From IMG/VR virus record IMGVR_UViG_2563366840_000004: DNA of 10,407 nt. One strand, 5' to 3'. A program made the translations under genes and the position numbers. Positions within the stretch are counted from its first letter, which is position 1. Each line of letters opens with the position of its first letter. Positions 963 to 3,047 of the stretch are shown in pieces. Below the pieces are notes generated by a model, which made no database searches, was not told the DNA's origin, and was given only the letters and a program-made list of their open reading frames with translations. This DNA is from a virus (taxonomy: Duplodnaviria; Heunggongvirae; Uroviricota; Caudoviricetes).

Positions 963-1529
963 ATGACACCACGACAATTACTCGAAGACGTCAAATCCCG
1001 CTTCACACCTTTGATTGCGGATGAACCTGCCTTACTGGAATCCCTGCTAAGAAAAGCATTGGGAACCTACCAGGATAGAGCGGGGCACATCAAGCGGATA
1101 CGCTTCACTGATCAGGCCAGTAAATCACTTGCTTGCCCTGCTGATTTTCTTGCGCTCGTATCGGTTACAGATCACACCGGCGATCTTGTCTACTCCGACG
1201 TTTACGATGGGAATATCGAGCTTGAAGATACCCATCGAGCGGTATACCCACTGAATGTGTCATATCTGGCTAATTTGCGTGATATGGATCTGGATAATGG
1301 AGAAGTGCCACCTGAAATCATTGGGTTACTTTCTGACTATCTGGAAGTGCTAATCGCGATACCTAACACTGATCGCCTGCGAAGAATATCTATCGCGGGG
1401 AAACTCGATGCCAGCAATTTATCCGACGAGAACACGCTGTATCAGCGGAAGCTGGATCTGGAAGAGAAAATGAGCGCAACAAGGGCAATTATCCCGGGAA
1501 TTGTTCTTTTCTCATCCATGTTGAAGTGA
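963..1529 (+). CDS. Hypothetical protein, 188 aa, acidic; first gene of the tail morphogenesis operon
   Basis: ATG at 963 preceded by GAGG with a 5-nt spacer; uninterrupted ORF; its stop overlaps the strong RBS (GAGGGGG) of the next gene. No recognisable motif. Confidence 0.6.
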
Positions 1530-1539
1530 GGGGGCTGAT

Positions 1540-2151
1540 ATGGGGCTTAATGTTGCTTCAGTAAAGTCTTATGTATCTTCGGCATTAACGACGACATTAT
1601 TTGGCTCCGGCGTTGGTGAGCGGGAAGTTGGTAAGCTGACGTCAATCATCATGAACAAAATGCTGTTCGCGCAAGGATGGCAGTTCTCTGTCGAAGTTGA
1701 TGGACTGGAGGGAGCAGACTTCTTTGCCAAAGATATTACCTACCACGATTACAGCATCGAATATGAAACGATTAAAATCGGCGGAGGGAATATCCTTCAA
1801 CCAACGGAGCGTTCGCCAGGGCAGATAACAATGATGGTCAGGGATACCGTTGATGGCCTCGTTTTGGACTGGTTTAAGACGGCAAAAAGTCGGGTGATTA
1901 ATCCAGACGGTACCGGGAATATACCGTCTAAATATTTGCTCAATGTGCGTATTTATCGGTTGCTGTCTTCCGGCTTAACCAAACTGGAAAATGAGATGAC
2001 TGTATTCCCGGTCACTACCGGCGATGTCACCTATGCGCGGGATCAGGTTACGGAATTTAAGTCATTCCCAATGACCTTCGCATTGCACAGCACGTTTAAC
2101 CAATCCTCAAGTTCTTTGGCTTCCCTTCTGGGCTTTAGTTTTTCTCTTTGA
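1540..2151 (+). CDS. Hypothetical phage structural/morphogenesis protein, 203 aa
   Basis: Strong RBS GAGGGGG 5 nt upstream of ATG 1540; 10-nt gap to the previous gene, 14-nt gap to the next. Composition looks beta-rich; function not recognisable from sequence. Confidence 0.7.
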   Translation: MGLNVASVKSYVSSALTTTLFGSGVGEREVGKLTSIIMNKMLFAQGWQFSVEVDGLEGADFFAKDITYHDYSIEYETIKIGGGNILQPTERSPGQITMMVRDTVDGLVLDWFKTAKSRVINPDGTGNIPSKYLLNVRIYRLLSSGLTKLENEMTVFPVTTGDVTYARDQVTEFKSFPMTFALHSTFNQSSSSLASLLGFSFSL

Positions 2152-2165
2152 ATTAAGGAGCAAGG

Positions 2166-3047
2166 ATGCTTTTACCCCTTTTCCCGCTACCATCGCGGCC
2201 AACTGAATTGATCCAGTTCCGTCAGCCAAATATTGCTGATGCGATGCGTTTCAACTCGATAACACCGGAGGAACAAGAACAACAGACAACGGCGTATTTA
2301 AAAGCCTTGCTGGCTGAACCCGCGAAACATGATCCCCTGACATGGACGGCGCAGGACCGGATTACCGCGTTATGGTGGATATTTACCGGCTCCCGTGAAA
2401 CACCGGTCGAGACATTCACTTACACCTGTAAACATTGCGGTAAAGAGCATTATTACGATTGCGATATGAATGCTCTGGCTGAAGATATCCAGGTCCTGGA
2501 AGTGGAACCTTTCATTGACGATATTGAGGTGTCTGTAGAGGGAGTACCTTATCAATGGCGTATCGTGCCGCTTGATGGTTGGGCAATGGAAATGCTGGAG
2601 ATGCGCCGTGCAGCATTGCCACCTGAAGACGACGCGGAATTCAAAGAAGCGATCGTTGATTTGCGTTTTTGGGAATTCGCTTATCAGTGTGAGCTTTATA
2701 ACGATGTTAGCGGTACTCGTGAAGATCAGGCTGAGCGTCGTTATGAAACGATTAAACGGATGGCCATTGATACTGAATTTATGAAGCTGGCGGCACACAT
2801 CCGACTGGCTCATGAAAAGCTCGAACATGGTTTACCGTGCTACATCGATAAAGGTGAAATGCGTCTTCGTCTCCCGCCGCATAAATGCCCAAATCAGGAT
2901 AAAAAGGAGTCCACAGAGGGTGCGTATACCCGTCTGTGGGTGCCCTTTCGGGCTACCGACTTCATTCCACAGGTGGGGATTGAAAAGCTATCAGACCTTA
3001 GTGTCCAACCTGGTTTTGTATGGGGGTATACCGATTCAGGACGCTGA
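2166..3047 (+). CDS. Hypothetical protein, 293 aa, with Cys motif C-K-H-C plus distal Cys residues (possible metal-binding)
   Basis: RBS AAGGAG 7 nt upstream of ATG 2166. Contains TYTCKHCGKEHYYDCD and a later LPCY...HKCP. Sits immediately upstream of the tape-measure-like gene. Confidence 0.7.
   Translation: MLLPLFPLPSRPTELIQFRQPNIADAMRFNSITPEEQEQQTTAYLKALLAEPAKHDPLTWTAQDRITALWWIFTGSRETPVETFTYTCKHCGKEHYYDCDMNALAEDIQVLEVEPFIDDIEVSVEGVPYQWRIVPLDGWAMEMLEMRRAALPPEDDAEFKEAIVDLRFWEFAYQCELYNDVSGTREDQAERRYETIKRMAIDTEFMKLAAHIRLAHEKLEHGLPCYIDKGEMRLRLPPHKCPNQDKKESTEGAYTRLWVPFRATDFIPQVGIEKLSDLSVQPGFVWGYTDSGR

Follow-up and report, generated by a model that had tools for sequence, protein, structure and literature searches.

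The stretch of viral DNA analysed here (IMG/VR record IMGVR_UViG_2563366840_000004; 10,407 nucleotides (nt), called the window below, with all positions counted over its whole length) raises the question of what is encoded by three consecutive genes that lie between an IS1 element and a tape-measure gene of the Sit type. An earlier reading of the letters of this DNA, made without database searches (the sequence-only reading), had described their products of 188, 203 and 293 amino acids (aa) as uncharacterised, as carrying no assignable motif and as the least explained in the window. All three turned out to be named P1 genes with 98.4–99.5% protein identity, two of them with solved structures. 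By its sequence, the region belongs to a P1-like phage-plasmid and forms the beginning of its late sit operon, with pmgC, tub and pmgB in this order, and the word uncharacterised was wrong for pmgC and tub. The identity of the three genes as P1 pmgC, tub and pmgB and the structures of PmgC and Tub were already known. What is new in our analysis concerns the third gene, namely the kinship of PmgB with the T4 proteins gp51 and gp26 and a +1 frameshift. We found that pmgB very probably uses a +1 programmed frameshift, which is unannotated and deeply conserved. The assignment as a whole, that is pmgC, tub and a gp51/gp26-like pmgB whose +1 frameshift would yield a longer predicted product, PmgB*, is one that we consider probable and hold with good confidence.

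The spacer between pmgB and sit is 81 nt and thus not tight, which is unusual in such a compact operon. In the window, the +1 frame (frames are counted relative to pmgB, which is frame 0) was open from 2785 to 3117, across the pmgB stop codon, and it stopped 11 nt before the ATG of sit. The frame change in pmgB and the coding content of the 81-nt 'gap' had been overlooked by the sequence-only reading.

The +1 frame was compared in 37 distinct loci from genomes, phage D6, Vibrio and Pantoea plasmids, and metagenomes. These loci come from Escherichia, Pantoea, Serratia, Xenorhabdus, Citrobacter, Buttiauxella, Aeromonas, Vibrio, phage D6 and 19 metagenome contigs, and their identity to P1 PmgB goes down to about 27% over the fused proteins. 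The metagenome loci were collected by a scan with one alignment (A4); two other alignments (A2 and A3) were too diverse for a pattern search, and single distant proteins used as queries gave no matches in viral contigs.

All 37 loci had the +1 frame open past the pmgB stop, for a further 70–172 nt, and the +2 (= −1) frame was closed in all of them. P1 and P7 carry the same shift site and the same tail as the window. The peptides encoded in the +1 frame aligned without gaps over 50 residues and followed the pattern FG(I/L/V)xxSFQ…GW..(I/L)..NL.LYGGQP…L.EWRA..MN..L.EK.K, and this conservation was at the amino-acid level despite very different DNA sequences. When the two frames were joined at F261, the fused proteins had a uniform length of 294–321 aa (316 aa for PmgB* of the window), and the frame-0 sequence past F261 was of variable length, from 5 to 37 aa. 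In P1, the frame-0 end (271–293) was predicted to be disordered by AlphaFold2 (AF2), with a predicted local distance difference test (pLDDT) score below 50.

In the window, pmgB was followed directly by the tape-measure gene, and the same held for the related loci in which a tape-measure gene could be recognised next to it. Wherever the start of the tape-measure gene could be placed with confidence, the +1 tail ended no more than about 15 nt from it. At 17 of 32 loci the tail's stop codon overlapped the tape-measure start codon (distance −4 or −1; L004, L097, L098, L101, L104, L107, L109, L111, L114, L116, L118, L119, L122, L125, L126, L128 and L132), and in 12 more of the 32 it was situated 1–15 nt upstream. 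Because the stop of the tail lies on the tape-measure start, it is the frameshift product, rather than frame-0 PmgB, to which translation of the tape-measure gene would be coupled at these loci. In two loci, L008 (8868–9692) and L094 (3811–4986), 0.8–1.2 kb without a called gene separated pmgB and its tail from the next long open reading frame (ORF); this extra DNA, at the expected position of the tape-measure gene, could be an insertion or a degraded gene.

The proposed shift site reads TTTCGG in 33 of the 37 loci, TTTTGG in two, TTTCTC in phage D6 and TTTCGC in a Pantoea plasmid. The flanking codons differ, and UUU followed by a pyrimidine is kept in every locus. In 16 loci a stop codon of the +1 frame sits 2–8 nt before the TTT, as in L120 (TAA CCT TTC GGA), so the frame change can occur no earlier than there and the site is pinned. 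The divergence of the codon positions agreed with this placement. Upstream of the site, the third position of frame 0 was the most variable (0.68); in the first 27 nt downstream and in the next 150 nt, the most variable position was the third of the +1 frame (0.54–0.70), and the third position of frame 0 was the least variable (0.31). Taken together, these comparisons establish at the sequence level that the +1 tail is conserved and coding and that the frame switches at UUU_CGG.

A separate gene of about 50–60 aa, overlapping the end of pmgB and translated without any frameshift by its own, perhaps non-canonical, initiation or by re-initiation once frame 0 has terminated, would equally keep the frame open and conserved and show codon periodicity, and some loci do have ATG, GTG or TTG in the +1 frame. 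The start codons argue against it: in 25 of the 37 loci the +1 frame lacks a canonical start upstream of the site, 12 of the 37 have none before the conserved NL-LYG motif, and the existing starts are not conserved in position. A separate small gene is thus unlikely. Moreover, the constraint on the +1 frame starts right after UUU_C, upstream of every frame-0 stop, the nucleotides of UUU_CGG are conserved even at synonymous positions, the fused lengths are uniform, and PHROGs holds no family for the +1 tail or for such a small protein. We consider this explanation very unlikely.

It is also conceivable that the 81-nt gap is conserved because sit is regulated from it through RNA or DNA, for example by a leader structure or a promoter, and that the open +1 frame is incidental. 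The gap is directly upstream of an essential, long gene, and moderately stable local hairpins were observed in a few metagenome loci (z down to −2.1). Against these points, folding gave no consistent structure (z-score −0.23 in the window), the three-base periodicity with the third position most variable extends over 150 nt, the +1 frame is open and the +2 frame closed throughout the 37 loci, and the conservation at the amino-acid level spans very different DNA. A regulatory element in place of a coding tail is therefore extremely improbable.

A −1 or −2 shift in pmgB was rejected, as the +2 frame is closed and re-pairing is impossible for −2. A recurrent GGAAU…AUUCC pairing, considered as a stimulator, was explained by the codons. 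A test for avoidance of TTT_CGG elsewhere in the genes of the window was uninformative (1 in 2,833 codons compared with 0.74 expected). Among the window genes, TTT precedes a rare Arg codon at just one other place, TTT_AGG at 3918 in sit; a 43-codon open +1 frame follows it, and its occurrence is probably due to chance.

Several observations speak against a programmed frameshift and a functional PmgB*. No conserved stimulatory RNA structure was found downstream of the site in the 12 loci folded, and no conserved Shine-Dalgarno-like stimulator was found before it, as the six nt preceding UUU vary across the loci. CGG makes up 22% of the Arg codons in the genes of the window and is not rare in these phage genes; because of this, a 'hungry codon' argument depends on the tRNA abundance of the host. 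Most of the family retains the frame-0 end FRxxDYIPxL-stop. This suggests that the short form is functional too and that both products may matter. The AF2 prediction of the +1 tail, run with homologues of the short form, was helical with a pLDDT of 43–60, a low confidence that arises because the tail had no alignment depth. As for the PmgB* protein itself, the virion proteomics yielded no trace of PmgB (PMC9024508).

We infer the following course of events at the site. Most ribosomes would read pmgB in frame 0 and stop at 3047, which presumably gives the 293-aa form. A fraction would slip by +1 at CCC_UUU_CGG, where the simplest mechanism would have the P-site tRNA-Phe re-pair from UUU to UUC with the A site awaiting CGG, a codon that is decoded by a scarce tRNA in E. 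coli. The slipped ribosomes would then read 55 codons, stop shortly before sit and release PmgB*. In bacteria, a UUU with a pyrimidine after it is documented as prone to +1 shifts, and such a sequence is the presumed site of the Yersinia YopN-TyeA fusion; in influenza A, the PA-X cassette is UCC_UUU_CGU (PMC5009743). The logic of the pmgB tetranucleotide, with tRNA-Phe moving from UUU to UUY, is the same as at these two sites, and CCC_UUU_CGG comes close to the PA-X cassette, with an Arg CGN codon in the A site; two pmgB loci use UUU_UGG. The context is different from both, as pmgB is a phage tail-assembly gene.

The extended product is missing from the annotations that were checked. Neither a tail nor a joined coding sequence was present in the RefSeq records of P1 and P7, in the JL22 and D6 records or in the Vibrio and Pantoea plasmid records, nor in the annotation of the Prokaryotic Genome Annotation Pipeline (PGAP) among the matches listed of 473 E. 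coli records. About 23 codons of coding sequence are thus unannotated in all the P1-family records examined. A pmgB frameshift was not found in P1 papers or by full-text literature searches, which do not fully exclude an earlier mention. In Xenorhabdus bovienii FO818638.1 (L006; 8001–8943), the range given for the pmgB gene is 943 nt, not a multiple of three; it reaches from frame 0 through the +1 tail to the stop of the latter, and the recorded product is the 277-aa frame-0 protein. This range suggests that some annotator noticed the frame problem. In phage D6 (NC_050154.1; L103, 3331–3437), the annotated 'sit' starts 14 nt after the pmgB stop, inside the +1 tail ORF that runs to 3437, and this sit start was probably called about 107 nt too early.

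The question of what PmgB does was approached through its family. PmgB of the window is 99.0% identical to P1 PmgB at the protein level. It was reported that deletion of pmgB leaves P1 without tails and that PmgB is not detected in the virion proteome (PMC9024508), and P1 PmgB was earlier reported to be unrelated to anything known. In our searches, PmgB matched the Pfam family PF12322 ('T4_baseplate'), whose membership was checked and includes both T4 gp26 and gp51. The same family was matched independently by 12 of 15 close PmgB relatives and, at E<=0.1, by 42 of 76 more distant members of the PmgB family (best E 1.2e-6). A profile comparison with hhalign of 37 PmgB against 92 gp51 sequences gave a probability of 89% and an E of 2e-6 (residues 12–129 versus 10–115, the CxxC motif included), and single-sequence hhalign against gp26 and gp51 gave a probability of 22–52%, so that the family profile was required.

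The predicted structure agreed with this relationship. The AF2 model of PmgB, made from a 15-sequence alignment, had a mean pLDDT of 84.6 and a predicted template modelling (TM) score of 0.82, and was confident to residue 245. Foldseek of this model against BFVD, a collection of predicted viral structures, yielded 37 matches (E<=1e-3), and many of these belong to T4-like and other large myophages and bear the name baseplate hub subunit or hub assembly protein. The top match, a T4-like 'baseplate hub subunit/assembly protein', had an E of 2e-9 and TM scores of 0.62/0.72, with predicted models on both sides of the comparison; no solved structure was found for any member of the PmgB/gp51 fold. 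The N-terminal domain of PmgB also showed a weak fold resemblance to the tail assembly chaperones HK97 TAC and YqbN.

Two points count against this kinship: the window protein itself scored 17.2 bits with PF12322 (E 0.004; residues 15–122), below the gathering threshold of 24.5 bits, and the homology to gp51/gp26 is detectable solely over the N-terminal 100–120 residues. Weighed together, the family and fold comparisons show that PmgB is remotely homologous to gp51 and gp26, the hub-assembly chaperones of T4, and with this link a family is given to what had been, until now, the essential tail gene of the cluster without one.

The sequence-only reading had pointed to a CxxC motif and distal cysteines in the 293-aa protein as a possible zinc site. 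The C88-x2-C91 motif is indeed present, and among the candidate ligands only C88, C91, H95, H221 and C241 are conserved in the aligned family members, together with G222. The family is of modest size and counts 161 representatives at the 50% identity level. The CxxC of PmgB aligns with that of T4 gp51. The cysteines of T4 gp51 are C85/C88 and C185/C186, and those of T4 gp26 are C82/C84 and C187/C190, so the second pair of both proteins follows the first by about 100 residues. The first Cys knuckle of PmgB is at the same position as that of gp51/gp26, and the second ligand group comes about 100–150 residues later. As C88, C91, H95 and C241 are conserved and the Cys pairs of gp26 and gp51 are found at equivalent places, a putative Cys3-His metal site in PmgB is plausible.

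Compared with T4 gp51/gp26, PmgB has the homologous N-terminal 100–120 residues and the same predicted fold, and it is longer through a helical insertion at about 138–218. Like these proteins, PmgB is needed for tail or baseplate assembly, and as gp51 is not incorporated into the particle, so PmgB is not found in virions (PMC3004832, PMC9024508). The genetic arrangement is different: PmgB adjoins the tape-measure gene and has the proposed +1 frameshift, whereas T4 has two paralogous genes, neither of which is reported to frameshift. The T4 gene 26 (L003, 2803–3429) is annotated with full-length gp26 and with 26', an internal-start product of the C-terminal 95 aa. At their C-terminus, gp51 homologues have a further and newer Pfam domain, PF28602. 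A likeness by eye between the +1 tail and the C-terminal 45 residues of gp51 was dropped, because hhalign of the tail profile with the gp51 family gave an E of 0.29.

PmgB might instead be a true structural part of the hub, as was once proposed for T4 gp26, that has been missed through a low copy number or disorder. Older T4 genetics put gp26 in the hub (PMC3004832), the small PmgA and PmgR were likewise missed by P1 proteomics, and parts of the P1 baseplate lumen (Sit, UpfB) are not resolved in electron cryo-microscopy (cryo-EM). On the other side, PmgB is a protein of 33 kDa with many tryptic sites and was nevertheless undetected in virions (PMC9024508), and neither of two independent P1 baseplate reconstructions lists it among the modelled proteins. 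In T4, gp51 does its work without becoming part of the particle, and a list of hub-assembly chaperones includes it together with gp26 (PMC3004832). A structural role of PmgB is thus unlikely, and an assembly factor, not detected in virions, is the preferred reading. By position, the sequence-only reading had guessed at chaperones, initiators, hub components or injected proteins co-transcribed with the tape-measure gene, which came close for two of the three genes. For PmgB the guess of a chaperone fits, as it behaves as a non-virion tail-assembly factor (PMC9024508) and is gp51/gp26-like and, weakly, chaperone-like in fold.

Tail assembly chaperones made by frameshifting were described by Xu, Hendrix & Duda (2004), as summarised in PMC5009743. 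Like lambda gpG/gpGT and P2 gpE/E+E', pmgB is immediately upstream of the tape-measure gene, its two products would share an N-terminus, the frame change lies close to the gene's 3' end and the extension ends at the start of the tape-measure gene. That PmgB was not detected in virions is also as expected of such chaperones. On the other hand, the pmgB shift is +1 at UUU_CGG and not −1 on an X_XXY_YYZ heptamer, PmgB is two to three times larger and has a Cys/His knuckle, and no sequence similarity of PmgB to gpG or gpT was detectable. The extension of PmgB* is 55 aa, shorter than the lambda T part, which has about 140 aa.

By analogy with gpG/gpGT and with P2 E/E+E', the body shared by both forms may bind the tape-measure protein Sit, the nascent gp6-gp5 hub or both. 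The short +1 tail, predicted with low confidence to be helical, would link this body to a second partner, for example the hub, Tub or the BplB tube subunit, and both PmgB and PmgB* would be released from the finished tail. A 2016 recoding review stated that long-tailed phages 'except T4' conserve the G-T frameshift and that one archaeal myovirus likely uses +1. A wider proposal, which we put forward tentatively and consider possible rather than probable, is that P1-like myophages have in PmgB and PmgB* their pair of tape-measure/hub chaperones and that the whole gp26/gp51 (PF12322) family consists of divergent tail assembly chaperones. If so, the rule of a conserved frameshift in tail assembly genes would reach the P1-like lineage through a +1 shift at UUU_CGG, and T4 would reach the logic of two products by the paralogues 26 and 51 (plus the internal-start 26') and not by a frameshift. 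The end of PmgB* on or next to the tape-measure start (17/32 loci) could then couple the translation of the tape measure to the long form.

P1, a classical model phage, also serves as a tool in transduction and Cre-lox work. P1-like phage-plasmids were present in about 9% of complete E. coli genomes (471/5426), and they carry resistance genes. The gp51/gp26 link together with the conserved +1 frameshift gives a concrete, testable model of how the P1 tail is started, and with it a recoding event that is otherwise known nearly exclusively as −1 gains a +1 (UUU_CGG) example. It was reported that plasmid-borne pmgB restored infective particles weakly (4.7-fold), and that pmgA and pmgC did so just as weakly (PMC9024508). 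The weak complementation by pmgB may relate to the +1 tail, only if the clone ended at the annotated stop codon.

The other two genes of the cluster are already explained. PmgC is 98.9% identical to P1 PmgC at the protein level, matched PDB 9UMS ('PmgC') over its full length (1–188; E 7e-119) and belongs to PHROG 1851 (E 2e-102). In the cryo-EM study of P1 (2026), PmgC is a dodecameric adaptor that is bound to the portal and located between the portal and the stopper gp7 (PMC12810830), and in the pmgC deletion mutant heads and tails remained unjoined (PMC9024508). A tail or injected protein, as guessed from the position of the gene, is thus not what PmgC is: it is a portal-bound head-to-tail adaptor. 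It had also been called strongly acidic; it is acidic just moderately (isoelectric point 4.9, net charge about −8), and PmgB is more so (net about −18).

Tub is 99.5% identical to P1 Tub at the protein level, matched PDB 9AY5/9VZK ('Tub') over residues 1–203 (E 1.5e-131) and belongs to PHROG 1842. It was described as a hexameric 'tube initiator' that is placed atop PmgG and the gp6 hub, the tube proper being BplB (PMC12810830). An independent model of the P1 baseplate agreed, with six copies of Tub below the last BplB tube ring (bioRxiv 10.1101/2025.07.21.665459). By both of these studies, the guess of an initiator in the sequence-only reading fits Tub. The database name 'tail tube protein' is imprecise for Tub, as the major tube protein is BplB in the same two reports. 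All three genes, pmgC, tub and pmgB, are essential by knock-outs and CRISPR interference (PMC9024508, PMC10695390).

Starting at position 864 or 911, the window has about 97% DNA identity to P1, P7 and many P1-like phage-plasmids. The annotated order in P1 and P7 is the LPsit promoter, pmgC, tub, pmgB (tubA, tubB and tubC in P7), sit, pmgA, bplA, 16, R and S, and the window keeps this order across pmgC, tub, pmgB and sit. The three ORFs, their strong ribosome-binding sites, the 10–14 nt spacing and the neighbouring genes on both sides were confirmed as first read (Table 1). The spacers are 10 nt between pmgC and tub and 14 nt between tub and pmgB, with the Shine-Dalgarno sequences AGGGGG and AAGGAG, and no convincing terminator on the + strand was found within the pmgC-tub-pmgB cluster. 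The stretch 893–965 is identical to the P1 stretch with the annotated LPsit promoter, which is thus intact 32–50 nt upstream of pmgC.

Table 1. Positions in the window of the operon start, the proposed shift site, the +1 tail and the candidate metal ligands of PmgB
Feature	Position	Strand	Remarks
LPsit late promoter	913..931	+	−22 box 913-921; −10 TAGAAT 926-931; upstream of pmgC-tub-pmgB-sit
pmgC (P7 tubA), 188 aa	963..1529	+	head-to-tail adaptor
tub (P7 tubB), 203 aa	1540..2151	+	baseplate tube-initiator ring, tube-like fold
pmgB (P7 tubC), frame-0 product 293 aa	2166..3047	+	gp51/gp26-like tail (hub/tape-measure) assembly factor
Codons C88, C91, H95 of pmgB	2427..2450	+	candidate CxxC-x3-H knuckle between two beta strands; invariant or near-invariant in alignments A1, A2, A5
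Codon C241 of pmgB	2886..2888	+	distal ligand candidate (PPHxC); invariant in A1 and A5, >=90% conserved in A2
Proposed +1 shift site CCC_UUU_CGG (P260-F261-R262)	2943..2951	+	UUU 2946-2948 to UUC 2947-2949; UUU_CGG 2946-2951
+1-frame tail of predicted PmgB*	2950..3117	+	55 codons 2950-3114, GLPTSFHRWGLKSYQTLVSNLVLYGGIPIQDAERLTESYAFFLLEKLEEKLKPKR, then TAG 3115-3117; fills the 81-nt pmgB-sit 'gap'
sit, tape-measure protein with C-terminal SLT transglycosylase	3129..6521	+	presumed PmgB client; PMC9024508

Around the promoter, a perfect 11-bp inverted repeat is formed by CTCGTAGAATC (922–932) and GATTCTACGAG (945–955), and the same sequence is present in P1 and P7. The repeat (922–955) overlaps the LPsit −10 box (926–931) and the pmgC Shine-Dalgarno sequence GAGG (952–955). 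Both arms would be present only on read-through transcripts from upstream, in which the ribosome-binding site of pmgC might be masked.

Upstream of the operon, the IS1 element occupies 96–863 (768 bp), and its flanks, TATGATGAA and CCACCTACA, show no target-site duplication. The left flank (1–95) had no match in the phage collection, and positions 1–863 are contiguous in many resistance plasmids. This indicates that foreign DNA bounded by IS1 meets the P1 backbone 99 nt upstream of pmgC. IS1 and the foreign plasmid DNA here take the place of most of a region that is sim in P1 and upf50 in P7.

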